From Clarias gariepinus (Eukaryota), in contig NC_071110.1 of assembly GCF_024256425.1 (NCBI RefSeq), forward strand, positions 2,663,451-2,727,450: 64,000 nt of DNA, given 5' to 3'. The position numbers were made by a program, and so were the translations under genes. Below, one piece after another: positions 1-64,000 of this stretch. The notes under the pieces were generated by a model. That model saw nothing but the letters and a program-made list of their open reading frames with translations, was not told the DNA's origin and made no database searches. How positions within the stretch are numbered: the stretch's first letter is position 1; the number at the start of each line of letters is the position of its first letter.

Positions 1-175
1 GTTTATATTACCAGTTACTCAGTACTTGATGAGTCTTTTCACCGAATACTTTTTTAATCTACCTTGAGTAATATTTTGGACGACCACTTTTCACTTCTAC
101 TTAAGTAATATTGTTTTGAAGTACAGTTACTCTTAATTAAGTAAATTTTTTGGCTACTCTACCCACATATGCTTA
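1..175. repeat. Probable DNA-transposon terminal region with repeated 'acttgagtaa/acttaagtaat...tacttttac' sub-motifs. Similar motifs recur at 52140-52330.
   Basis: Direct sequence motifs only. Family not identified. Confidence 0.25.
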
Positions 176-526
176 TCACCATGGACCAGCCCTGCTGTTG
201 CTTGTCACATTATGTGTTTTATGCGATGTCACGAGCACCTGCTTCATTAGGATATATAAGGCACTGTGGGGATAGGTGGGTGGGAGTGTTACCTTTCTCT
301 TGAAAGTGTGTGTAACGGAGATGTCCAGTGCTGTTTAAATAAAATGCTACTCTTGTTGTGATACTATTTCAAGTCTTCAGAGTTGTTAATTTAATTTTCA
401 CCACAAAAGATAGGTGATTTGCTTTCCCACAAATCAAATCCAGTTAGCTTAAATTTATATTAACATCTCCCTTCTCTCGCCTTACCATAACACTTCCTCA
501 TCTCTTCTACTGTGTGGGATGACCTT

Positions 527-535
<9 letters not shown>

Positions 536-571
<36 letters not shown>
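536..571. repeat. (CA)n microsatellite
   Basis: Perfect dinucleotide run. Confidence 0.95.
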
Positions 572-573
<2 letters not shown>

Positions 574-699
574 CCATTCGAATGGATCGAAGAATAACAA
601 AATTGGCAAAGACTCAGCCAATGATCAGTTCCAGCAGGAACAACACCTAAAGTTACCTTTCAGTACTGTTACTATTAGAAGTCGGCTATGTGAAGCCAA

Positions 700-1330
700 G
701 CTATCGGCAAGAAGTCCCATTGTTGAAAAAAAAAAAACGTGCTGAAGTGGTTACAGTTCGCCAAAGAACACACTGACTGGCCTAAAGAGAAATTGCGCAA
801 TATTTTGTGGACTGATGAAAGCTAGATTGTCCTTTTTGGGTCTAGAGGCCACAGACAGTTTGTCAGGCCCCCAAACACTGAATTCAGGCCACAGTACACT
901 GTGAAGACACTAAAGCATGGAGGGACAAGCATCATGATATGGGGATGCTTCTCGTACTATGGTGTTGGGCCTATTTATTAAATTTCAGGGATCATGGATC
1001 AATTTAAGTACATCAGAATACTTAAAGAGGTCACGTTGCCTTATGCCGAAGAGGAAATGCCCTTGAAATGGGTGTTTCAACAAGACAACGACCCCAAACA
1101 CACCAGTAAGCGAGCAGCATCTTGGTTCCAGACCAACAAGATTGACGTTATGGAGTGGCAGCCCGATCCCCAGACCTTAATCCAATAGAAAACTTCTGGG
1201 CTGACAATAAAAATGCTGTTTCTGAGGCAAAACCAAGAAATGCAGAGGAATTGTGGCGTGCAGTACGATTGTCACAGATGTAAAACAGTTCTCAGAAACC
1301 TGGTTATACAACTAAATATTAGTTTAGAGA
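700..1330 (+). mobile_element. Tc1-like transposase fragment (DDE region), degenerate.
   Basis: ORF 994..1188 encodes '[10 protein letters not shown]...[10 protein letters not shown]', resembling Tc1 'QDNDPKHTS...[12 protein letters not shown]'. Upstream frames show transposase-like text with frameshifts. Confidence 0.6.
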
Positions 1331-2029
1331 TGCGCAAGAAAGATTAAACTTCAAGCATCTTTGTTTAAACTGTAAATTCATCACTTTGTAAAGATGAATG
1401 ATGACACTGCTGTTTTTTTAACAGACTAATATTTGTTTTTCTTCACTTTCTGTAAACTAATAATCCATTTATAACATTTTTCTTCGTGTTGTGATTCAAA
1501 ATAATACGTGCAGGGAGTCCAATGCATTTCTGTGATTTAAATGAAAAGTTATTATTTGGATATGGAGCTTTACTCACTTTTTTAACACACTGCTATTCTT
1601 TTGAAAACAACTGTAATTTATTTAGGGTATTAATCAATAGAAATGTAGGTGAAAAGATGAAAATACAGCCAGAGGTTAACATACACTCTATATTGACATG
1701 AATGTAATGGCGTTCAATTTATTATTTTAGGTCCTTTTCCAAGAAACAGTGCTGTTTTTTCAATTGCTAATAAAAAGACCTTACAATGACCTTTAAAGAC
1801 CTGTAAGACAAATCTTACATATAGAATACATCGTGCATTAAGATGCATTAAATCTTTTCAACATGCAGAAACAACTTCTGTCTGGATAACACGGGGCAAA
1901 GCCAAAATCAAGCGGTTCTGTTGTGTGTTATGTGAAATTTAATTAGATGCCTTGATTATATTTTTTGTAAATCTTTGACATAAGTTTCATTTCGAGTCAC
2001 ATATTCTGAGAGTTGAGTGGATGTGATGC

Positions 2030-2470
2030 ATTCTCTGTGAAGGAGCTTTATTGTGTCAGAGACGCTGTAAAAGGACAGAGTTCCTACACTGTGATCCATA
2101 CACTCCTATACTGGAGGACACTGGACTTTGGAACTTTGTCTTACTTTTGTTGTGGCAGAAACCGGCATGTAAAGGAAAACACTCCAGACTCCAGGACTGA
2201 CTACTGTGTTCAAACAAGATGTCATCCTCTCCTTTCCTACTGATCTCTTTATATGAGACTGGATACAATGTTATGGATACAACGCCACTCCACTCCACCT
2301 CCCAGTAACAGCGTCCACACACACACACTCTTTACGCAACACCTACTCCCAGTAGCTAAATCTCTCTGGATGATCAGAGTATTGCTGTCTTGTCTCACTG
2401 CATGTCACTGATCTGTTCTTCTTAGACAGAATGAGGTGATGATGTGCTGGGTTGGGATCCAGATAAAGGA
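2030..2470 (-). pseudogene. finTRIM-like B30.2/PRY-SPRY terminal exon (copy A), frameshifted. Its upstream small exons lie at about 2805-2850 and 3340-3400. No RING exon is found upstream.
   Basis: ORF 2056..2328(-) reads 'CGRCYWEVEWSGVVSI...SSSIGVY', then goes out of frame relative to copy B ('IGVYVDHSAGTLSFY'). A 2-bp gap at about 2085 is the cause. The B30.2 continues in another frame ('MDHSVGTLSFYSVSD'). Confidence 0.55.
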
Positions 2471-2519
2471 TAACAGAAATCTAAAATAATACAATTTTTA
2501 CAGGTTAGAAATAACTGGT

Positions 2520-2660
2520 TGTGGTAGGTTAGTGATGTTGGACGATTGGACAGAACGTTTGGGTTCAAATCATCGCAGCATCAAGCTGCCACTGCTGGGC
2601 GTTTAAACAAAGCTTGTTCAATTGAGATTGAGATAAATGTCAGCTGTGAAATAAAAAAAA
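2520..2660 (+). mobile_element. Small tRNA-like SINE/MITE ('ggttcaaatc...gagataaatgt'). A related copy lies at 6780-6900.
   Basis: tRNA T-loop-like motif and a shared 3' end with the 6780-6900 copy. Confidence 0.3.
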
Positions 2661-3019
2661 ACCTTAATCACAGAACATATGATAAATGTGTGTGAGACAG
2701 CTTTTTGTATTTTCTGTCCTCTTAGTGCAAAATTTTTATAAAAAATATTTTACATATTAATAAGGTAAAAAAGTGTTTACTGTACATTGCATAAAATCCT
2801 CTTTGCCTTCCAGCTGTGAAGGTAATATCGGAACCGCTGCAGCTGGGAAATAAAGTGGAGACAGAAATATGACATGAAAACAGTTTAAAAACTCAGGTGG
2901 ACACATGAAATAAACGCTATCTTGGTGGGTCAGAAATCCAAAATTGAATGTAAGGCCTCGAATAATTTTTTATGGGCTCCGAGATTAGTTTGTGGGTTTG
3001 GTAAATACTGTTGGAACGA

Positions 3020-3195
3020 CATGCTGGTGTAGTGGTTAGCACTGTCGTCTTGCACCTCCAGGGTCCGGGTTCGATTCCAGACCAAGTTTGATTCCCATCT
3101 CTGTGTGCATGGAGCTTGCATGTTCTCCCCGTGCTTGTGGGGTCTCTCCAGGTACCTGCAGACTAGGCTAGTTGGCATTCCCAAACTTGCTGCAG
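3020..3195 (+). mobile_element. tRNA-derived SINE (teleost 'gtggttagcactgtcg...gggttcgattcc...gtttgcatgttctcc' family).
   Basis: tRNA-like A/B box head followed by the conserved fish SINE core. Further copies lie at 42470-42600(-), 46615-46900(+), 50335-50420(-) and 61080-61260(+). Confidence 0.7.
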
Positions 3196-3599
3196 TGGGT
3201 GAATAAGTGTGTGTGTGCGTGCCAGTCTTGTTCCTTCTTATTTCTGTTAGATGAATTTTATGACTCTTTACTGTGATGCAGAACTGTAGTTTACCTTGTC
3301 AAAGGCTTTTGTTAAATTATATCCTTGACTCATTTTTTCAGATCTGAGAGAGATTTCCTCACTCCATCAAATGAGAGATGTTAACGAAGGAATCTCAGAC
3401 TGAATCAGAACAAATCAGAGAAAATAATTTACTAATGTTTATAATAAATTAACTTAAATAATTTACTTATTTATTAAAGTTTATTATTTATTTATTGTTT
3501 ATTATTTATTATTTATTAACTTAAGTTTATTCAAGTTAATAACGGTGCAAACGTTTCAAAGAAGGCCATACATCTGTGCCCTATGATTTAGGCCAAGGT

Positions 3600-3790
3600 G
3601 GCTCAGCGCCACCAAAATCGACAGATATATCATCATCATCACCATGCAGAACATATCCGTCTGTGGGAACTGTACACACAATCATTCTCCACACTACTTG
3701 CACATTTAAAGGAACTTGGCTGGGAGTTGTTGCCACATCCAATATCGCTCCAAGCCATTTCCACATGTTAGGGCACTTACATGAGTAAGT
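3600..3790 (+). mobile_element. mariner-like transposase fragment
   Basis: Encodes '...LPHP.YSPDLAPS'-like text. Compare the mariner motif 'HPPYSPDLAPSDYHLF'. A paralogous fragment lies at 11210-11410. Confidence 0.45.
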
Positions 3791-4438
3791 CCATGGGGGG
3801 TCAGCATTTTAGATCTGAAGCAGACAGTCTGGTTGTGACTCCAGTGTACTGAGAAAACTTTCTACCTGGATGGTATCCAAGCACAAGTGAAACACTGGGA
3901 TAAGTACATTAATGTAGAACAGGATTATATAGTGAAATAAAGGGAATTTTCTCACTTTGAATTGAATGGCCCATGTAAAATAAATTCCTAGCATATATTA
4001 CCTTCTGGATTTTCTTTAGGACCAAATAGTTGTTTGATGATCACATAACAGTTCAATTTTCCTTGAATGTGTGGAACAAAAAAAACTTTCTTTAAATTTA
4101 GTTTTGAAAATTTGTTCTGATGTCCTGAGGTGGTCAAGAAAGTTGATCAAAATGTTTAAATCAGGCAGACATGAATTCCACATATAGTGCAGTGATTCAG
4201 GGAGATTCTGATTAACAACTGACTGTAGGTGAGTCTAAAGAAAAAGAATAAGTGGTGTTAGGTCTGGATCGAATTGATTTTAAAAATTTTTACTATCAAT
4301 TATATATATGTATAGATATATAAATTAAATTTTATTAAATTTATATAAAAATGCTTACGTATCTTGAATTTTAGGCCATCCTGCATAAATATATTTTAGC
4401 AGTATTGACTATAGTGCAATATGCTATGAATACTCTTT

Positions 4439-4444
<6 letters not shown>

Positions 4445-4525
<81 letters not shown>
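4445..4525. repeat. (TA)n(GA)n compound microsatellite
   Basis: Direct repeats. Confidence 0.95.
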
Positions 4526-4527
<2 letters not shown>

Positions 4528-6214
4528 GTATGATAGGCAAATAAGTTTTGCATACAGTACAGAAAGACAGATGTTTGAGTATATTTTATTATTTCAGAAG
4601 AAACAGTCTTTAAGAAAGTAAAAGTAATACTTGTCATTCATGAGAAATTAAATTTTTTTATTGGGGTGTAATAAATTAGCTTATAGTGCATGCAGCTCAG
4701 TTTTGTTTTTTTGTTTTTTGTATACGGTGTGTAACAATGGCAGCTATACAGGAATATAACTCCAGATCTGAGAAAAAAACTGTATATAGCAAAAATAATA
4801 CAGTTTAATAGTTTGATTTCAAAACATTTTGTATTAACCTTTAGAATGGATGCATTTCAAAATAATACAGTCAGAGGTTTATAGACAATGTACATTAACA
4901 TGAATATTATGGCAATATTAGGCTTTTCATTTAAATTTACAGTAACTTAAGGTGTCTTAAGGAATAACACAATTATTAAATAAATTACATTGTTATAAAT
5001 AACAAATTAAACAAAATAAAATTAATGAAAAAATGTAATTGGAGTTGCTCATCAAATTGTTTTTGATTACAAAGGCGTTACATCCAGATATATTATTTTC
5101 AATCAAAATATTTTATGCAGTCTACAACATGCATTAAGCTTTTTAATCTTTTAATCTTTTTGCAAAGCAGGAACGACTACTTTTGCCATTGTCCTGGATA
5201 CCACCGGGACAAAGGCTCTGTTAATTTGACAATATGTGCTCAAATTTTCAGCACTGTTTCTGGTGCATCACTTCCCATTTGCCAGTTAAATTAATGTACA
5301 TTGCTCCAAGCAACCCGGGTTTGCCATGCTTGTTATATAAGTTTCAGTGCTGGAAATTCAACAGTATTCAGGAGCATTGAAAATGCTGTCAACATTAAAA
5401 TACTTGATGTCAAACTGGAAAGAGAATTGTAATAAGGTACATTACTTTGATCAAGTAATTGAAATACTGTAGCTACATTACATTTTAACAAGGTAACCAG
5501 TAATCTGTCAGCTATTACATTTCCAAATTAATTCCAACACTGCTGGTGGATATGATGGAGAACTTCAGAATTCTTCGGCAAACCCTTAAATCATCAGATA
5601 GACACGTACAAGATGGACAAAATTGAGTGATCCAACAGTGACAATGCCCCCAAACATACAACATGGCTTGGTGTCGAATGGATAAAGCAGGTGAACTTTA
5701 AGTTTTTAGAGCAGTAACCCTATTAAAAACTTGTGGACCATGCTTTAAAATTAAGTCTGAATCAGGAAACCAACATATTTAACTGAACTCTATTAAATCT
5801 AACAAGGCAACTGGGCACATATGCAGCCAGAAGCTTGGAAAGGGTGACCTTAAGTATCTACTAATGAGAAGGTTGCTAAGGGTATATATTAGTATATAAG
5901 GGCAAATACTACATGCGCTTTCGATAAAAAAGTTGACCCTGTATGTACACATACATGTATGTGTAATTTTGCCCCAGAAAATGTACATGTGCATGAAACT
6001 TGAAATCCATTTAAAAGTGTATGTTGACCTACAAAAAGACCACTTTAAAAAAAGCCTGTATTGCTTTTACATTAATTTACATGATGTGTGTATGTACATA
6101 TTATGTAATAATAATAATAATAATAATAATAATGTGATTAATTTTATGCACACATCTTAGGACCAAATTGAATCTGAAACATTAATAAAAATTTTTGTAA
6201 ACCCTTTAACTAAA

Positions 6215-6740
6215 CGTTTATTTTAAGTCACATAACCTTAGACTTGAGATTTTACCTAAACAGAACCCGGCGTACAGAGGTTGAGTGAATGTGGTGTGGA
6301 CTCTGTGGAGGAGAGTCAGCCCTATGTCAGAGACGTTGTAAAAGGACAGAGTTCCTGCACTGTGATCCACATACACTCCTATTCTGGAGGACGCTGGACC
6401 TCGGAGCTCAGTCTTACTTTTGTTGTGGTGGAAACAGCCATGTGAAGGAAAACACTCCAGACTCCAGGAATGACTATTGCGTCCAAAAAGGTTGTTTTCC
6501 CGTCCTTTCCTGATGATCTCTTTATATGAGACTGATATGGCCACTAACCTACCATTCCACTCCACCTCCCAGTAACAGCGTCCACACACACTCTCTTTAC
6601 ACAACACCTGAGCCCAGGAGTCAAATCTCTCTGGATGATCTGAGTATTGCTGTCTTGTCTTACTGAGTGTCACTGATCTGTTCTTCTCAGACAGAATGAG
6701 ATGACCGTATGCTGTGTTGGGATCCAGAGTCAAAAATCTA
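6215..6740 (-). CDS. finTRIM copy B terminal B30.2 (PRY/SPRY) exon, including stop.
   Basis: ORF 6218..6766(-) 182 aa with hallmark 'LDPNTAYGHLILSEKNRSV...VCGRCYWEVEW...SWSLEC...GVYVDHSAGTLSFY'. Confidence 0.8.
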
Positions 6741-9700
6741 AAATCTAAAACAATAAAAATGTCCACAAGTTAGATATTAATGTGATGTGGTAGCTCGGTG
6801 CTGTTGGTCTACTAATTGGAAAGTTTGGGTTTAAATCACGGCACCAAATGCTCTTAGCTCTCAATTGCTCAGTTGTATTAATGAGATAAATGTAATTCTC
6901 AATTTTAGAATTTATAATAAATGTGTGAGACATGTGCATCTGTTCCTGTCCTAATTATTCAACTCTACATAAAATATTTTACATATTAAATATAATTCAT
7001 TAGATGTTTACACAGTGTGTAAAACACAGTCATTGTTACACTTACATTGCCTAAAACCCTCTCTGCTTTCCATTTGTGGAGGTAATATCTGAACTGCTGC
7101 AGCTAGGAAATAAAATGGAGAAAAAAATATGACATGGAATTTTATGGACATTTTTCATTTCTGTTGTTGTTGTCTGATAAATTTATTTTAATTTAATTAA
7201 CAAGGCTAATGCTAATATTATGTGACTTTATCCATTAGATAAATTTTATGTCTCTCTTTACTGTGATGTTTGCTTGTTTACCTTGTGGACGGATTTTGTT
7301 GAATTCCTCCTCACAGATTTCCTCGACTCGTTTTTTCAGATCTGAGAGAGATTTCCTCACTCCATCAAATGAGAGATGTTGATTGACAGTGAAGCTGGGT
7401 GCGTCCTCACATCCAGGAGAAACACAGAGAGACGGGAAACTCTACAGAGAGGAAACACATCATAGAGAAGGAGAAAAGTGTAGGAGAGGAACGAATGAAT
7501 CTCAGACTGAATCAGACCAAAGACACACTTGTGATCTCAGACAGGAACATTTATTGTTGCTGTAATGAGCTTTTAGGAGGAAACTTTGTGAGGAACAGCG
7601 CCCTCTGTAGATCAGACAGTGAGTGTTACCTGGAGGAAGTGGACGTCATTGTGTGTTTGTGAAAGCTGCTCCAGCTCAGTGACTCTCCTCTTAAGATCAG
7701 CAATCTCCTGCTCCAGTTGCTTCAGGAGTCGTTCAGCTCGACTCAGTTCAGCCTTCTCCTGAGCTCTAATTAACTCCGTCACCTCCGAGCGCTTTTTCTC
7801 CATAAGGCTGATCAGCTCAGTAAAGATCATTTCACTTTTCTCTACTGCTGCCTGTGAATGCATCTGTTAGGACACACACCAAAAAAAATTGAGCTTTGTT
7901 TAAATCTCAAGTCTTTCTTGTACAGTCCCCCCATAATGTCCATTGTGTGTGTGTGTGTGTGTGACCCTAGTGCAGCTTTTGTTATTATTGATCATAGTAT
8001 TATTTTCATAGATTAGAAAATATGATAAAAGTCAAGGAAATGGAGCTCACCTGGCTTAGAGGCTATTTGACTGATCGTTATTTATATATTTAAAAGGTAA
8101 CTATTCTACAGTGAAGTTTGGTGTTCCCCAGGGATTGGGTTTTAGGCCCACTCTTATTGACGTATAAAGCACCAAATGGTCTTGCGCCAAAGAACCTGCT
8201 AGTAAAGGATGCAGGCTGCTTGTCAGTTCCGCATATTACAAAAACTATAGCAGGGGGGTGGAGCTTTTTCTTACAAAGCCCTAAAGTTAAAGAATAGTTT
8301 AAGTCTAGACTAAAAACCTATTTATTAAGCCAAGATTTTTTTTTTTTTTTTGTGAATAGATTTGCCTTACGTAAAGAAGCAGATCTGGGGGACTCTAGAG
8401 TATTTTGGTGAACTGGTATGTTTGGATGCTGCCTTCACCACTTTCATTGATCATTTGGTTTGTTAATGGAGTGACAGGTTGCTTTTCTTCCCAGGGAGTC
8501 CTCATGTCTGTGTTAATTTCTGGCTGTCCCGTTTAGTTATGCTGCCATAGTTCAAATTCAAATTTAAATTTTATTTGTCACATACACAGTCATACACAGT
8601 ACGAAATGTAGTGAAATGTAAACATAAACATGTAGTGTAGATGTGAAGGTAGATGTGCGTGGAATTGTCCATAGTGTCCATGGATGTAAAAAGATTGATT
8701 GATTGATTGATTGATTGATTAATTGTTTGTGAAAAGATTGTGTTAGTTCTGCATAGTGGTGTGGTTGAAAGACCGTATCGCCTGCGGGAAGAAGCTCCTC
8801 CTCAGTCTCTCTGTGTTGGCCTTCAGGGAGCGGAATCACTTCCCAGACCGCAACAGAGTGAACAGTCCATTGTTGGGGTGGCTGAGGTCCTTCACGATCT
8901 TCCTGGCCTTGGTCCAGCACCGCTTGGTGTAGATTGAGTGCAGGTCAGAGAGCTCGGTGCGGATGATGCGCTCAGCTGATCGCACCACCCTCTGTAGAGC
9001 TTGTCTGTCCTGTATGGTGCTGTTCCCGAACCAGGTCGTGATGTTTCCCGTCAGGATTCTCTGTATGGTGCAGGAGTGGAAATTCCTGAGCACCTTGGAG
9101 GGCAGTCTAAAGTCTCTCAAGCGTCTGAGGTGGTACAGATGCTGCCGGGCCTTTTTTACCATGGTGTTGATGTGACAGGACCATGCCAGGTCCTGCCTGA
9201 TGTGAACACTGAGGTATCTGAAGCTGTCCACTCTCTCCACTGGGCTCCTGTTGATGACGGGGGCTCACCTGCTTTGTACTGAAGTCTTGCTGACGTTCAG
9301 GAGGAGATTGTTTTTCTGGGACCAGTTCTCCAGATTTCCAACCTCCTCCAGGTAGGCCGTCTCATCGTTGTTCGTGATCAGGCCCACCACAACAGTGTCG
9401 TCAGCAAACTTAATGACGGTGGTGGAGTTGGTAGTGGCCACGCAGTCATAGGTGTACAGAGAGTACAGCAGGGGGCTCAGAACACAACCCTGGGGGGCTC
9501 CAGTGCTGAGAGTGAGGGAGGCTGAGACATGTCTGCCCATCCTTACTGCCTGCGGTTTGCCAATCAGAAAATTGGAGATCCACTGACACATTGATGATCT
9601 GAGTCCCAGGTGCTGCAGCTTGCTAGCTACCTCTAGTGTTTTGTGACCTCTTGGATGAGTCGTCGCTGCACTCTTGGGGTGATTTTGCTTGTCCAGCCAC

Positions 9701-12038
9701 TCCTGGGAATGAGTCTCACTGTGGTTTCCTGCAGTCTGAAGGCTTTAGAAATGGCTTCATAACATTTTCTAGACTGATAGATCTAAATTATCTTCCTTTT
9801 CATTTGTTTTTGAATTTCTTTTTATCTCTGCATGATGTCTAGCTTTTAAAGATCTTTTGGTCTACTTCACTTTGTCAGGCAGGTCCTATTTAAGTGATTT
9901 TTTGGATTGGGAACAGGTGTGGCAGTAATCAGGCCTGAGTGTGGCTAGAGAAATTAACTCGTATGATAAACCAGAGCTTTGTTTTTTTTTACGGGGGGAG
10001 GGGGGGGGGGGGGCACTTTTTCACACCACTATACAGTACATTATGTGACTTTGACCATATCTAAATATTATCATTCTTTCTCTTCTTTTCCCTTTCTCTC
10101 TCTCCCCCTTTGAGCGACACATGCCGCTCCTGAGCAGCCTGTGACCAGACCCCCTGTGCCCTCCAGACCTGTCAGACTCATCCTGGTGCCCTGCTTGTGG
10201 TTGGAGATTTGGTCACATGGAGGCCCTGTGTGTGATGACTGGGGACGGTTCCATTTTACCATAAAGACGGCCCTGACCTCGGCTGATGCAGACAGCTGAT
10301 CTCTGAGGATTTGTAACTGCAGTCACTTAATAGTCCAGGACTGGAAATCCCTACAGTCTACATGAGCCTCCAATAGGAAAGTGGACTTTATATTGACTTA
10401 AAGAAATCATCCATTATATTGAGCTGGCAGCCTCCTAACACACAGTATGATGCAGATCAAACCCTGCCATCTGTTATCACCCAAATGAGGATGGGTTCTA
10501 TGTTTGAGTCTGATTCCTCTCAATGTTTCTTCCCATTTGCCATCTTGTTGAGTTTTTCCTCGTCATCATCACTCTTGGCTTGTCTATCACGGATGATCTG
10601 AGTCATTATGGTTTATACATATTTTCTCAAATTTCATAAACCTTTTTTCCTTTTGATTCTTTAAAGCTTCTTTGCGACAATGAAGATTGATAAAAACACT
10701 GTACAAAAGAATTAATTGAATTGAATTTGTGTTTGCACAAGGACAAGCATGCATGGGTGCCAGTATCTCTCTGTAATCTCTCTGCTCTCCCCTCACCTTA
10801 ATAGTGTCCACAGTCTGTTTTAGCTCTTGAACCTTCTTCTGCTTCTCCTTGATTCTCTGCTGGGATTTCCCCTGCTCTCCCTTCAGTTCATCCTGAGACC
10901 AAATAAAATAGACTTCATAATTTCCGTATCAAAAAAGCATCAAGGTTTTATTTGCATGAACTTTGGAGAAAATAATCTACCTAAAAAAAGACAAATTCCA
11001 TCTTGAAATAACAAAACTGCGAGTAGGGTTTAAGTCATACTGGGACTTGTGTGCAACATTCTGGTGACTGCAGGCATAAAACCATTTAACATTTACAAAA
11101 GACTTCAAACACAGTAGGGTGATGAGACCCTTAGCTGCCTTATAACATTTGAATGTTGCAAGCGATTTAAAGAAGGCTGAGGTAACTTGGAGTCCACTGG
11201 AGTCGTTCAGTGGAATGCGTGATTCCTAAAACTTAAAAAGATGGATAATCTTGTCACCAACTTGTGGAAGACACACATCTGTCTGTGGGAACTGTGCACA
11301 CAATCATTCACAAACACTACTTGAACATTACAGGAATCCTGCTGGGAGTTATTGCCACATCCCTGTACAGTCCTGACCTCGCTCCAAGTTTGACTTAAGT
11401 GAGTCAAATTCTATACTTTCAGGTTATTCAGGTCATTTATCTTGCCTTCTTGCTCTATGATTCTAACCAATCACAGACAAGAACTAATCATCTTAACCTC
11501 ACTTGGGCTTGGTAACAGATAAAGCGTTTTTATATATCTATGGCTTTTTTTTCACTGACCCGAATATAGACTGTGTGGTCCAAAATCCTATCATCATCAT
11601 CATCTTATTTTGTGCCACTTGTCTATACTGTGAATACAAGACCATTGAATTTAACAACATTATGTACAGTATAGTGCAGTGATTGTTTTAAGTGATGCTG
11701 ATAAGACTATTGACTTCCAAATGAGCTATGGAATATATGTTGTATAAGAAAGTCTAATTAACAGGAAGTTTTAATTGAAATAATAATGTAAACATCAACA
11801 CCTTATCACTATTACACAGCTTTAACACTGCAACAGCACTGTGCTCTGTTGTTCTGACTACATCCCAGGATTATATCCCAGTATTTCAAGGTAGAAAGTT
11901 TTCTCAGTGCACTGACACGTCTAATTTAACTGACTGGTTTAACACATCCTTACCAGCAGGCCTTTTAGTAGAAAAAAATTATGTTAAAGTGAATGACAAG
12001 CAAAAAAATTTTTTTATTTTCATCTTAACGAAAACTAC

Positions 12039-12095
<57 letters not shown>

Positions 12096-12701
12096 AGATT
12101 CAGTTCTCACCTGCTTTTTATTTCTTTCTGCTTTAGTTGAACCTGTTTCATGACCTTTATGGTCATCCATCATACACAAATAACAGATGAAGCTTTGGTC
12201 AGTACGACAGTAGATCTCGATTGGTCTATTGTGCTGAGAGCAGATCTTCTCTTGAAGCTCTGCACAGGCTTCCACTAACTTGTGCTTCTTAAAGGCAGGA
12301 GACTGATAATGAGGTTGAAGATGATCTTCACAATAGGAGGCCTGACACACCATACAGGAATTAACAGCTTTGCGTTTTCTCCCGATGCAGAAATCACACT
12401 CCACATCTCCAGGTCCAGCGTTACAGTGAGGAGCAGATGCAGCTTGGAGTTCAGTGTTATTTTGTTTCTCCATCATTTCAGCCAGCATGTTGTTCCTGCG
12501 TAGAACAGGCCTTGGAGCGAAAGTCTCTCTACACTGAGGACAGCTGTAGACTCTCTTTACATCCTCCTGATCCCAGAAGCGATTAATACACACCTTACAG
12601 TAATTGTGGCCACAGGGAGTTGTCACGGGATCCTTCAAAGGGTCCAGACACACTGCACAGCTGAACTGATCCTGATCTACTGAAATACTGGCCTCTGCCA
12701 T
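6215..12701 (-). CDS. finTRIM-like TRIM gene (copy B), full gene span: RING, B-box, coiled-coil, B30.2. It has at least 5 coding exons.
   Basis: N-terminal exon encodes RING 'CAVCLDPLKDPVTTPCGHNYCKVCI...SCPQCR' plus a B-box. A 96-bp exon and a 234-bp exon encode coiled-coil. The terminal exon is B30.2 'CGRCYWEVEW...LDPNTAYGHLILSEKNRS'. GT/AG sites were located by hand. Confidence 0.8.
7282..7395 (-). CDS. finTRIM copy B small exon ('FDGVRKSLSDLKKRVEEICEEEFNKIRPQ').
   Basis: Open frame with donor 'AAG|gtaaac'. Conserved in copy A (3340-3400) and copy C (63880-63935). The 5' boundary is uncertain. A further conserved micro-exon candidate lies at about 7085-7120. Confidence 0.45.
7630..7863 (-). 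CDS. finTRIM copy B 234-bp coiled-coil exon
   Basis: ORF 7612..7863(-) encodes 'AAVEKSEMIFTELISLMEKKRSEVTELIRAQEKAELSRAERLLKQLEQEIADLKRRVTELEQL'. Acceptor 'aacag|', donor 'CAG|gtaaca'. Confidence 0.7.
8080..8340 (+). mobile_element. Non-LTR retrotransposon 3' fragment (L2/Rex-like tail, 'LDYCN...KTYF' family), interrupted. It continues at about 9990-10300.
   Basis: Near-identical to 52990-54000, where ORF 52913..53425 encodes '...LDYCNALLSG...LTRTRIYEHITPIL...KSRLKTYFF'. Confidence 0.5.
8560..9600 (-). mobile_element. LINE reverse-transcriptase fragment
   Basis: ORF 9265..9591(-) shows 'GAPQGCVLSPLLYSLYT...KFADDTVVVG' (RT motifs). ORF 8836..9240(-) is RT thumb/C-terminal. Confidence 0.7.
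10797..10892 (-). CDS. finTRIM copy B 96-bp coiled-coil exon
   Basis: Encodes 'SQDELKGEQGKSQQRIKEKQKKVQELKQTVDTIK' between AG and GT. 96 bp is the length typical of finTRIM exon 2. Confidence 0.65.
11210..11410 (+). mobile_element. mariner-like transposase fragment, paralogous to 3600-3790.
   Basis: '...YSPDLAPS' motif. It sits in the corresponding intron of the duplicated TRIM copy. Confidence 0.4.
12111..12701 (-). CDS. finTRIM copy B exon 1 (ATG at 12701; RING plus B-box). Donor CAG|gtgaga.
   Basis: ORF 11979..12719(-). The true ATG is 'atggcagaggcc'. The donor is immediately followed by a (TA)n tract. Confidence 0.75.
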
Positions 12702-12797
12702 TTTCGTACACTCACACACACTCGCTCAAAAAGTAAACATTCGAGTTTCGTTTTTCTGTAAAATAACTTCCTGGTTCTGTCTGTGGTGTAGGGTGAC

Positions 12798-54779: not shown

Positions 54780-56800
54780 CTACGCAACAAGATATCCCGA
54801 AGCGCTCCAACTGCGAAATCCACCTCTAAAAATATCATGCATGAACTGGTACTGCTCTTCAGCTGTATGGGAATACCAAAGAAGCTCCTCACAGACCAAG
54901 GTACACCTTTTGTGTCTAAATTAATGAAAGATCTCTGTCTGCTACTACAGGTAAAGTGACTCTGCATGTCAGTTTTATCACCCTCAGACTGACGGCCTAA
55001 TGGAGCGCTTCAACCAAACCCTGAAGAGAATGCTACGAAAAGTAGCTGACAACAAAGGTCAGAACTGGTATCAGCTGCTGCCCTACGTACTCTTCGCAGT
55101 ACGGGAGACCCCCCAAACCTCCACGGGGTTTACTCCGTTCAAACTCCTATTTGGAAGGAGAGCCTGAGGATTACTGGTTGTAGAAAAAGAGACATGGGAG
55201 GAACAACCTTCCCCGTTCAGGTCAGTCATAGAATACATTCAAAATATGCAAGAGAAAATTCAGTGTGTTACCCATAGTGAGACGGCATATGGAGAAGGCA
55301 CAGGCGGAGCAGAAGAATTCTTACGACCGTCCAACACAACCCCGCGAGTTCCGACCTGGTGACCGGTTGCTCTTCTTGGTTCACAGTGCCAACTGTAAGT
55401 TCCTCGCACGCTGGCAGGGGCCCTTCACCATAACGGAAAGGGGAGGGCGAAGTGAACTATAGACTCCAACAACCAGGTAAACGAAAGACGTCTGAACTAT
55501 ATCATGTTAATTTGCTTAAAAAAATGGATAGAACTGACACCACAGACACAGCTATGGAGGCTGTATCTCTACTAGAACAGGCATGGGATCTAGCACAATG
55601 CGGAGAGGATCTGAGCCCATCCCAGGTCCAAACAATGAAGGACATAATCGACCAACACCAAGATGTATTCTTCTTAGAACCTGGGCTCACGCATCTCATA
55701 CAGCACGATATTAAAACACCACCGGGCAGCATCATCCCCCAGCGCCCATACCGGGTACCAGAAGCACGATGACGCGCTATCGAGGCAGAGGTGGGCAAAA
55801 TGTTAAAAGCCGGTATAATCAAGGAGTCCATAAGCCCGTGGTCCAGACCAATCATAGTGGTACTAAAACCTGACAGTAGCCTACGTCTTTGTAATGATTT
55901 CCGCTGACTGAATCAGGTGTCAGAGATCGGCTAGGAAGAGCCCGCTTCATATCCACCCTGGACTTAACAAAAGGATACTGGCAGTTAGCCCTCACTCCCA
56001 AGAAAAAACTGCTTTCAGCACAGAGCGCGGTCACTGGCAGTATCGAGTTCTTCCTTTTGGATTACATAGTGCGGCAGCTCCATTCCAAAGGCTTATGGAC
56101 ATTGTATTACGCAACCACCGGTCGTACGCCGCTGCTTACTTAGATGATCTTATCATCCATTTAAATAGCTGAGACGACCATATTTTCCACCTTCAACAGG
56201 TGCTGGCGCTACTGAGGAAAGCCAGTTTCACAGTCAACCCAGAAAAATGCCACCTCGGTCTGACGGAAGCACCGTATCTAGGGTACCGCATTGGCTGAGG
56301 TTGGTTGAAACTCAGGAAAAAAAGGTAAAAGCTATTTATAATTACCCACAACCACAAATAAAAAAACCAGGTGTGTGCGTTTATAGGTCTTGCAGGCTAC
56401 TATCAGCATTTTGTGCCTAACTTCTCTTCCCTTTCAACTCTTCCTTCTGATCTGCTGCGAAAGGGACAACCAGAAAAAATAAAATGGACAGATGTAACCA
56501 AACAGGCATTCAATCAGCTAAAAACCCTCCTAACTAGCTCTCCATTTCTTCGCAATCCGGATTTCGAAAAACAAGTCATCTTCCACACAGACGCCCCCGA
56601 GACTGGACTCGGAGCAGTGCTATCCCAGTTGTTTGAGCACCCGGTCTTATACGTGAGTAGAAAACTCAATAATGCAAAGCATAAATATGCAGCAGTAGAG
56701 CGGGAGGCTATAGTGATTAAATGGGCAGTGGATGAATTACGGTATTATTTAACAGGAAGACTTTACTGATTACAGATCACGCACCCCTAAAAAGGACACG
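54780..56800 (+). mobile_element. Degenerate Ty3/gypsy-like pol. An integrase-core piece (54780-55450) precedes RT/RNaseH pieces (55600-56770). Frameshifts and stops are present.
   Basis: 'YHPQTDGLMERFNQTLKRML...' is an integrase motif recovered across frames. ORF 55452..55772 shows 'LIQHDIKTPPGSIIPQRPYRVP' (RT N-terminus). ORF 56371..56769 shows 'FIGLAGYYQHFVPNFS...' (RT/RNaseH connection). Confidence 0.6.
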
Positions 56801-60700: not shown

Positions 60701-61079
60701 TACTCATTTAGTTTACTGAGTGTTATAGAAAAAAATATACCTTACACACAATGCAGCTTGTTCACCATCTGATAGCATTGCAGTGGGTATTTAACATTGC
60801 ATAATCCCTGCCTAAAGAGAGCGATGCAGCATCGCTTTAGTTCTTTAGTCTGTGCAGGTTTCTTATCTTACTATCTGGACACTCTGCCCAAAGAAATCAG
60901 CTTCAAAGTTTTATGTTGATACCACTGTAAACATCACTGCACGTCAAATAAAGTTTAAAAAAGAGGGGAGCTTAAAAAACAGTCAACTCTGAATTTCTTT
61001 ATAACATGCAGCCTTATCTGAAAGCACTGGAACAGCATGGCTACTTCTTTGCCTTTGCTATACACTGATGGGATTTGGG

Positions 61080-61260
61080 GCAGCATGGTGATATAATGGT
61101 TTCCACTGTGGTCTCCAAGGTTGGGCTTTGATTCTCACCTCACATCTATGCTCATGGAGTTTGAATGTCCTCCTTGTGCTTGGTGAGTTTCCTCCAGGTA
61201 CTTCAGTTTCCTACTACAATCCAAAGTAATGCAGGTTGGGCTAATTAGTGTTAGTTTAGA
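61080..61260 (+). mobile_element. tRNA-derived SINE copy.
   Basis: 'ggtgatataatggtttccactgtggtctccaaggttgggctttgattc...gtttgaatgtcctcc...'. Confidence 0.55.
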
Positions 61261-62372: not shown

Positions 62373-62890
62373 CATTTAATATGAGTCACATAACCTCACA
62401 GTTGAGTTATTTCTGAATACCTTGAACCCAGCGTACAGAGGCTGAGTGAATGTGGTTTGGACTGTGTGGAGGAGACTCATCGTGTCAGAGATGCTGTAGA
62501 AGGACAGAGTTCCTGCACTATGATCCACATACACTCCTATTCTGGAGGAGGCTTGACCTTTGATCTGTGTGTAAACATCATTGTGCCAAAAAGAGACAGA
62601 GGCAGGATAACACACCAGACTCCAGGACTGACTGTTGAATCCAAACCTACAGTCATTACCCTTTCCTTTCCTGCTGATCTCTTTATATGAGAGTGATATG
62701 GACACATCACCGCTCCACTCCACCTCCCAGTAACAGTGTCCACACACACTCTCCTTAGACAACACCTGATCCCAGTAGTCGAATCTCTCTGGATGATCAG
62801 AGTACTGCTGTGTCTCACCATATGTTACTGATCTGTTCTCCTCAGACAGAATAAGGGTAGGATGTGCTGTGTTGTGATCCAGAGTCAGTG
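62373..62890 (-). CDS. finTRIM-like B30.2 terminal exon of a third TRIM copy (copy C). The gene continues 5' beyond the window end. Conserved small exons lie at about 63400-63450 and 63880-63935.
   Basis: ORF 62376..62765(-) has 'VCGHCYWEVEWSGDVSISLSYKEI...GVYVDHSAGTLSFYSISD'. Sequence 63900-64000 is near-identical to 7340-7450 of copy B. Confidence 0.7.
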
Positions 62891-64000
62891 ATCTAAAATC
62901 TAAAACAGTAAAATGGTCACAGGTTACATGTTAATCAAAGGTTTATAGTTAGTGCATGAGACACCGTCTGTGTTCCTGTCCTCCTGCCCAAAATGAAATA
63001 TTTTAAATAAAAAATATCAGACTTTTATGTACAAATATATCATCCCACCATCTCTAGGGATTGAGGGCGGCATTCATCCAGACTCTTTTCCGTTCTGACA
63101 CCTAGGTGATGGAACAAACTTCCTCTAGATGTCCCACAGCAGAGACTTTGACTTATTTTAAACTACGACTACGAAGACGTATCTGTTTCTCCAGTACTTA
63201 GACTAATTCCCCCCAAAAACCCTCTCCCAGTTGTGTTGGACTAATGGCACTTAGTTATTAACCTAGTTAACCCAGTGTAAGTATGTATCCAATGATGTAA
63301 ACTTTAAAGCACTTTTTTAAGTCGCTCTGGATAAGCTCCTGCCAAATGCCTAAATGTAAATGTAAATGTGTGTCTATACTTACATTGCAAAAAATTCTGT
63401 CTGCTTGTCAGCTGTGAAGGTTGTATCTGAAATAACGCTACAGCTGTGGAGATAAAATAAAGACAGCGTCCAGCCTTATTACAGATAGACACATCAATTA
63501 AATGCCACCTTGGTGGTAAACATTCTCAAACTCTTAATACAGGTATTAACTAAAATTTTCTGAATTGTTTCTAAGATGATTTTGCAAACTTGTGATTAAC
63601 TTACATTTACATAATTTGTCTGGTAAATTTATCTTGATAGTGTACAAGGCCAATGCTAATACTTTGTGATTTTATTCATTAATTCAGTCGTCTGCCTATA
63701 ACAGCATATTAGATCCACTTTAGAGCTATGCGGGTAAAATAAAATAAAAACATTTTTTTTTAGAAAGTAGTTTTAAAACTGCTTTCTTCTTATTTCTGTT
63801 AGATGAATTTTATGGCTCTCATTAATGTGATGCATTAAAAATGTTTGCCTGTTTACCTTGAGGACTGATTTGCTCAACTTGTGTTTTCATCTTTGAGAGA
63901 GATTCCCTCATTCCATCAAATGTGTGATGTAGATTAACAGTGTACAGTGAGTCCTCACATCCAGGAGAAACACAGAGAGACGGGAAACTCTACAGAGAGG

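Follow-up and report, generated by a model that had tools for sequence, protein, structure and literature searches.

What is the short, damaged copy of a TRIM (tripartite motif) gene that lies next to an intact immune-type gene in the African catfish Clarias gariepinus: a gene spoiled by a sequencing error, a spare exon cassette, or a relic? The window analysed here, meaning the whole 64,000-nucleotide stretch of NC_071110.1 from position 2,663,451 to 2,727,450 (assembly GCF_024256425.1), contains part of a tandem array of genes that resemble the finTRIMs (ftr). An intact six-exon member, gene B, is followed 2.8 kb downstream by copy A, which spans 3414-1996 on the minus strand. A preliminary description drawn from the letters alone had seen tandem finTRIM-like paralogues here, with copy A truncated and frameshifted. 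Our analysis bears out both points and adds that copy A is dead: it is very probably a non-processed, 5'-truncated pseudogene fragment of a finTRIM-type gene, and we refer to it as psiA. For comparison we used the corresponding locus of the haplotype-1 assembly (L001, CM044214.1), which reaches 35 kb past the left end of the window and supplied paralogues D, E and F. Along the direction of transcription of gene B, the order is C, tep1, B, psiA, D, E, F. Window 22701-1 and L001 are 99.996% identical over 22.7 kb; they differ solely in how long a poly-C/G homopolymer is (~9999, within 9985-10010). This run lies outside copy A and reflects either assembly uncertainty or a real length polymorphism.

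The homology of psiA to gene B is far above chance. The B30.2 exon together with the end of intron 5 (2054-2572 against 6325-6838 of B) matches at 81% over 528 bp (E=1.5e-112), exon 5 with its flanks (2779-2876 against 7040-7136) at 85.7%, exon 4 (3319-3382 against 7317-7380) at 95.3% and a piece of intron 3 (3383-3414 against 7490-7521) at 93.8%. With a shorter blastn word size, 2878-2011 aligns with B without a break from exon 5 through intron 5 into exon 6, and tblastn recovers exon 4 at 3380-3315 with 82% identity. The B30.2 exon (down to ~1996) and two small upstream exons are thus retained, as had been described (Table 1). Because the introns are kept and are collinear with B across exons 4-6, psiA is non-processed and not a retrocopy. 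The near-identical flanks reported for the two copies are found over 64 + 32 bp around exon 4, but not in the exon-5 region (86%) nor in intron 5 (~65%). Intron 4 measures ~450 bp in psiA against 179 bp in B, and holds a SINE-like (short interspersed element) repeat with a tRNA-like 5' part that recurs in the window (46627-46677, 50326-50397 and ~61060-61240) and in L001 (25983-26101 and 31704-31739). On the 5' side, the last TRIM-homologous sequence is the intron 3 piece at 3383-3414, beyond which lies AT-rich low-complexity sequence (3415-3540). Searches of 1-6217 by tblastn (E<=10, word size 2) and blastn (word size 7) found no remnants of exons 1-3 (RING, B-box and coiled coil), in agreement with the earlier statement that copy A has no RING/B-box exon.

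Two observations concern the 3' surroundings of psiA. Downstream of it, at ~750-1160 on the plus strand, is a piece of a Tc1/Sleeping-Beauty-like transposase interrupted by internal stops; it was identified by phmmer against PDB sequences (SB100X catalytic domain, E=4e-38), and Pfam on its translation gave no useful match. Some 1.5 kb downstream of psiA, window 466-216 (257 bp) is 81% identical to L001 49980-50235, which lies ~2.3 kb downstream of E; this may represent a 3' flank duplicated as part of the unit, or else one more repeat.

Alignments with B, C, D, E and F revealed about ten independent lesions in psiA, where a single 2-bp deletion had been held to be the damage. Exon 4 is missing its first 61 bp and its acceptor, which were lost together with the 3' end of intron 3 in a deletion of 109 bp (junction 3382/3383). 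What is left of exon 4 carries a nonsense change (CGA>TGA at 3332-3330) and an 11-bp deletion at ~3318, and the donor of exon 5 is weakened (GTAAGT>GTACAG). The B30.2 exon has a 1-bp insertion within 2471-2459, a CAG>TAG change at 2345-2343, a 2-bp insertion by slippage in a GT run at 2333-2313 and an in-frame 9-bp insertion within 2276-2259. The 2-bp deletion is real but lies at 2098/2097 rather than ~2085 (IGVYGSQ is read in one frame and DHSVGTLSFY in another), and a 37-bp deletion at ~2011 took off the end of the SPRY domain with its conserved PLYAGF. With the other insertions, the TAG and the 37-bp deletion in the same exon, a change of frame does not restore the full B30.2 domain, as had been supposed. 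The repaired translation scores 65 bits for PRY and 26.2 bits for SPRY, the latter match ending at position 88 of the 121-position profile, and judged by its reading frames psiA would have no coding function.

An alternative would be that sequencing or assembly introduced the frameshift and that psiA is in truth a functional gene, either B30.2-only or an alternative cassette. Catfish genomes do carry many annotated open reading frames (ORFs) of 170-230 amino acids that are B30.2-only, some of them on this chromosome (proteins P0122 and P0138). However, HiFi errors would not produce such a set of roughly ten lesions, with two stop-creating substitutions and losses of 11, 37 and 109 bp; a second assembly of this individual has them unchanged, and the C-terminal PLYAGF strand of SPRY is physically gone. 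The assembly was built on 110x HiFi reads plus ONT (Oxford Nanopore) and Illumina data (PMC11458897). Sequencing error is excluded as the cause of the lesions, and the explanation is effectively refuted already, with next to no probability left to it. Resequencing around ~2085, which had been put forward as a check, could not rescue psiA because about ten independent lesions would remain. psiA combines collinear introns homologous to those of a functional paralogue with disabling mutations that are not sequencing artefacts. It is unannotated because the annotation pipeline threw out models with in-frame stops (PMC11458897).

The intact neighbour shows what kind of gene psiA is a fragment of. 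Our hand-built model of gene B (12701-6218) has six exons, GT-AG introns throughout and a 554-amino-acid product that is 100% identical over its full length to P0002, named 'tripartite motif-containing protein 16-like isoform 2-T2 [Clarias gariepinus]'. Pfam finds zf-C3HC4_4 (45 bits), B-box (41), TRIM_CC (173), PRY (81) and SPRY (44), and residues 102-141 give an ANCHR-like B-box match of 26.5 bits, slightly below the cut-off and consistent with a degenerate B-box 1. Gene B thus has a RING, two B-boxes of which the first is degenerate, a coiled coil and PRY/SPRY, with the RING and B-boxes in one exon and B30.2 in another among six; this matches the published finTRIM description of teleost tandem clusters with the same exon layout (PMC2657112). 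The copies C, B, psiA, D, E and F are packed into ~100 kb, a dense tandem cluster of the finTRIM kind. The true trim16 has a truncated RING/B-box region (PMC2657112), whereas gene B has a full RING. The best 120 of 6,906 homologue matches are all fish proteins save one metaclust entry, and go by the names 'finTRIM family, member 14' in Silurus and TRIM16-like or TRIM25-like in others. By its architecture and these source names gene B is a putative finTRIM rather than a trim16, trim25 or btr/trim39 gene, and the host is a catfish (Siluriformes), not zebrafish or trout.

Upstream of gene B lies a motif resembling an interferon-stimulated response element (ISRE). It is kept as GAAAACGAAACT upstream of paralogues D (L001 ~23886) and F (L001 ~55011), and the pattern (G/A)AAAACGAAACT occurs 53-109 bp upstream of the ATG in B, D and F and in degenerate form upstream of E. 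The pattern scan of the 64-kb window gave two matches and none near psiA. The motif fits interferon-inducible finTRIMs and, judged by this match, gene B is probably interferon-responsive; for psiA we infer that it is not expressed. A good deal of intron 2 of gene B (2.9 kb) looks like transposon debris, and the intron contains ORF fragments of a LINE-type (long interspersed element) reverse transcriptase (QGCVLSPLLY, FADDT) at 8836-9591 on the minus strand, in the orientation of the gene.

How old is psiA, and is it simply a worn copy of B? Over 143 gap-free B30.2 codons, A and B are the closest pair in the array, with 84.6% nucleotide identity and a synonymous divergence (dS) of 0.14, against 0.30-0.50 in every other pair. 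The ratio of nonsynonymous to synonymous divergence (dN/dS) is 1.26 for A-B and 0.42-0.65 in pairs of intact copies, which fits neutral drift of A. Intron 5 is only ~65% identical between A and B, with a Kimura two-parameter distance (K2P) of ~0.49, so that psiA is not a recent near-identical duplicate of B. The B30.2 exon is moreover of mixed affinity: its first third, the PRY part, has 90% identity with E against 82% with B, and the remainder 84-88% with B against 77-79% with E. Of the sites that distinguish B from E, 83 carry the base of one or the other in A; these favour E by 24:8 upstream of ~2257 and B by 37:14 downstream (Fisher p 3.4e-5 at the best position; ~2.5e-3 allowing for the breakpoints tried). 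By these comparisons psiA appears old and mosaic between B-like and E-like sequence, and the differing histories of its exons and introns point to gene conversion, as far as an imperfect alignment of AT-rich introns allows. A protein search with the frame-repaired B30.2 of A found no intact protein closer than 68%. The top match, P0121 of Clarias magur, was considered as an orthologue of psiA and rejected; it reached 316 bits because it is a triple PRY concatenation.

The high identity in the region of exon 4 is not peculiar to A and B. From exon 3 to exon 4, B is 92% identical to F (94.6% by megablast), and from intron 3 to exon 4 it is 91% identical to E (96.3% by megablast), which suggests that the exon 3-exon 4 region may have been homogenised locally by gene conversion in B, E and F. 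Window 7266-7878 compared with L001 57030-57637 and 43966-44208 gives 94-96% identity for exon 3-intron 3-exon 4 among these three copies; their exon 1 and B30.2 exons are only 75-83% identical.

The preliminary description had also used a mariner transposon to time the duplication, holding that A and B carry a fragment at equivalent intronic positions and that the duplication therefore post-dates the insertion. The fragments do exist at both places: 3651-3740 by A and 11273-11362 in B are 84.6% identical over 91 bp. Pfam found nothing on the degenerate A and B fragments, and homology to a mariner transposase comes from the better-preserved copy in intron 1 of F, which resembles the C-terminal end of SETMAR (Hsmar1) and of Mos1 (E=1.4e-4 to 1e-3, phmmer against PDB); the A copy is 73% identical to that copy over 302 bp. 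As the sequence stands the positions in A and B are not equivalent, because the element of B lies in intron 1, between exons 1 and 2, and that of A beside the intron-3 remnant, which it adjoins via 126 bp of AT-rich filler. Four copies occur in 58 kb, in intron 1 of B, in intron 1 of F, beside A, and at L001 48210-48650 (copy X), inverted, downstream of the last exon of E and outside any TRIM intron; by its sequence the element appears to be a dispersed, non-autonomous, internally deleted mariner. The B and F copies sit in collinear intron flanks. Around the A element we found no non-transposon flank homology on either side with B or with F, under conditions in which the B-F positive controls were clearly significant. 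One A-B flank alignment with a score of 54 (shuffle maximum 36) was rejected as a (TA)n microsatellite. A four-copy alignment showed no derived indel common to the A and B elements, and over the 109-column core that all four share, A-B identity is 80.7% and B-X identity 83.5%. Since A and B have neither a common flank nor a common indel, and their core identity is not above that of B and X, the claim that the duplication post-dates the insertion is unsupported.

The same data bear on how psiA came to lack its 5' exons. It could once have been a full-length B-like duplicate with the mariner in intron 1, from which one deletion fused intron 1, just past the element, to intron 3 and removed exons 2-3, and a second deletion removed exon 1; the A and B elements would then be orthologous and the insertion would pre-date the duplication. 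The element is antisense in A, B and F alike and stands on the 5' side of the A exon-4 remnant, as collinearity would require. B and F carry it at the same place in intron 1, and D and E have lost coiled-coil exons too, so that such deletions do happen in the array. At about one element per 14 kb, the chance of a copy in the right orientation less than 500 bp from the 5' end of A was estimated at a few per cent. Against this course of events stand the missing common flank, the only 'significant' alignment being the (TA)n repeat, together with the missing common indel, the A-B core identity that does not exceed B-X, and the lack of any exon 1 or 5' intron 1 remnant upstream of the A element in the search of 1-6217. 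Nothing among the evidence tested favours an intron 1-intron 3 fusion, and we regard it as unlikely.

Could psiA instead be, or have been, a 3' cassette of exon 5 and B30.2 that was spliced onto exons 1-4 of gene B? It may in that case still give an isoform with the RING, B-box and coiled coil (RBCC) and no B30.2, or act as a donor in gene conversion. The idea draws on an annotated protein, P0009 ('isoform 1'), made up of exons 1-4 of B (100%) and exons 5-6 of E (100%), joined precisely where exon 4 ends and exon 5 begins. It runs over L001 10001-47683 (37.7 kb), bypassing exons 5-6 of B, psiA and gene D to reach the E cassette 31 kb downstream. Exon phases are common to all copies, the mosaic B30.2 exon of psiA shows that sequence has been exchanged within the array, and finTRIM transcripts with short C-termini and no B30.2 are known (PMC2657112). 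Yet isoform 1 is a pipeline prediction (StringTie, miniprot, ab initio) made among paralogues whose exons are near-identical, gene D is skipped in its entirety, and a database look-up found no gene record with P0009 as its product; the protein may be a chimera created by annotation, or members of the array may be joined by alternative splicing over a long range. On the side of psiA, the exon-5 donor is weak and any product would stop ~18 codons into exon 6. A cassette role is accordingly very improbable in our estimation. We would treat as a long shot the wider notion that the array works as 'one effector head, many recognition tails', in which exons 1-4 of B would be spliced onto the cassettes of B, of E and formerly of A, and psiA may be a dead cassette still donating sequence by gene conversion.

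We therefore return to the reading of psiA as a pseudogene fragment. Most likely unequal recombination or a segmental duplication in the array would have given rise to it; the promoter, the RING/B-box exon and the coiled-coil exons would have been lost afterwards or been absent from the start, and the copy would since have drifted neutrally while exchanging sequence with its paralogues. Several points weigh against this reading or leave it incomplete. Exon 5 keeps an open frame and its acceptor, and exon 6 keeps its acceptor, and inclusion of psiA exons in read-through transcripts of B, yielding a B30.2-less isoform, is possible from the splice sites. The low A-B dS (0.14) is not fully explained beside the high intron K2P (~0.49), a mismatch that may come from gene conversion limited to exons or from poor alignment of AT-rich introns. 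Finally, psiA may have begun as a partial copy or as a full-length one.

In its general features psiA resembles known cases. Arrays of finTRIM genes have been reported to contain truncated members and pseudogenes with frameshifts or missing parts, and a 2-bp-deletion allele is described for zebrafish ftr39 (PMC2657112); psiA differs in being a bare 3' fragment and not a frameshifted full-length gene. It is a typical example of the non-processed pseudogenes of immune arrays (TRIM5/6/22/34, NLR-B30.2 clusters), which it resembles in its introns, its adjacent functional paralogue, its several lesions, a dN/dS near or above 1 and signs of gene conversion. The catfish 'TRIM16-like / stonustoxin-like' B30.2-only ORFs P0122 and P0138, 65-66% identical to repaired A, likewise have exon 5 and B30.2 without the RBCC part, but they keep open frames where psiA does not, and psiA also lacks the C-terminal end of SPRY.

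Table 1. Features of the array and its surroundings (window coordinates unless L001 is given)
Feature	Coordinates	Strand	Remarks
psiA exon 6 (B30.2/PRY-SPRY) remnant	1996-2480	-	five-copy alignment
psiA exon 5 remnant	2786-2842	-	frame open, CAG acceptor kept; aligned with exon 5 of B, C, E
SINE-like dispersed repeat in psiA intron 4	3019-3148		not in B intron 4
psiA exon 4 remnant, 3' part only	3295-3382	-	GT donor kept; six-copy alignment
psiA intron 3 remnant	3383-3414	-	93.8% to B 7490-7521 and to F intron 3
Mariner-type element by psiA	3541-3940	+	internally deleted, degenerate; antisense to TRIM genes
Gene B exon 6	6218-6744	-	whole B30.2, stop codon included
Gene B exon 5	7046-7102	-	
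Gene B exon 4	7282-7441	-	
Gene B exon 3	7630-7863	-	coiled coil
Gene B exon 2	10797-10892	-	coiled coil
Mariner-type element in B intron 1, 3'-truncated	11140-11400	+	same relative place as F intron-1 copy
Gene B exon 1	12111-12701	-	RING, degenerate B-box 1, B-box 2; ATG at 12701
ISRE-like motif AAAAACGAAACT	12744-12755	-	54 bp upstream of gene B ATG; consensus match only
tep1-like gene	L001 1-6265; window from ~16437 (3' end) upward	-	2,644-amino-acid product
Copy C B30.2 exon, open frame	~62379-62899	-	PRY + SPRY; translation, profile search
Copy C exon 5; exon 4	~63395-63450; ~63867-63989	-	alignment with other copies
Paralogue D	L001 23995-30735		annotated product 454 amino acids
Paralogue E	L001 exon 1 39750-40337; exon 4 44036-44212; exon 5 46835-46885; B30.2 47153-47680		
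Paralogue F	L001 from 55064		

A third copy had been placed on the far side of tep1, and copy C is there, with an open B30.2 exon and an exon 4; its 5' exons fall past the window end. Paralogues D and E look degenerate too, since tblastn finds D without exons 2-3 and E without exon 3. A lone exon-4-like fragment occurs at L001 36992-37120, and directly upstream of E lies a minisatellite-like block of tandem repeats (~1.4 kb, L001 37945-39306) whose copies are ~88-94% identical.

The gene between C and B is a tep1-like gene whose product carries the TROVE, NACHT and WD40 families, in the order of size of TEP1 (~2,600 amino acids); its exon pieces gave WD40 matches and faint 'TEP-1 second beta-propeller' matches. 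At window 44626-45288 (minus strand) a 220-amino-acid ORF has several copies of a Ser/Leu-rich repeat, LSSTASSSSLLSTSSS, and matches nothing in Pfam; it could belong to tep1 as an exon or be of another nature. Pieces of retroelement-like ORFs occur at 55450-56770 on the plus strand.

Taken together, psiA represents ordinary wear in a fast-duplicating array, and its significance lies mostly in annotation: an unannotated pseudogene fragment is documented, along with a correct model of the intact gene beside it in this catfish finTRIM cluster. The one point that deserves follow-up is the annotated isoform 1. If splicing of one head onto many tails were true, it would be a mechanism of combinatorial diversification for an innate immune TRIM. 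Partial copying, the loss of exons, the insertion of transposons and exchange of sequence between paralogues have all shaped the array, as already described for the finTRIMs of zebrafish.

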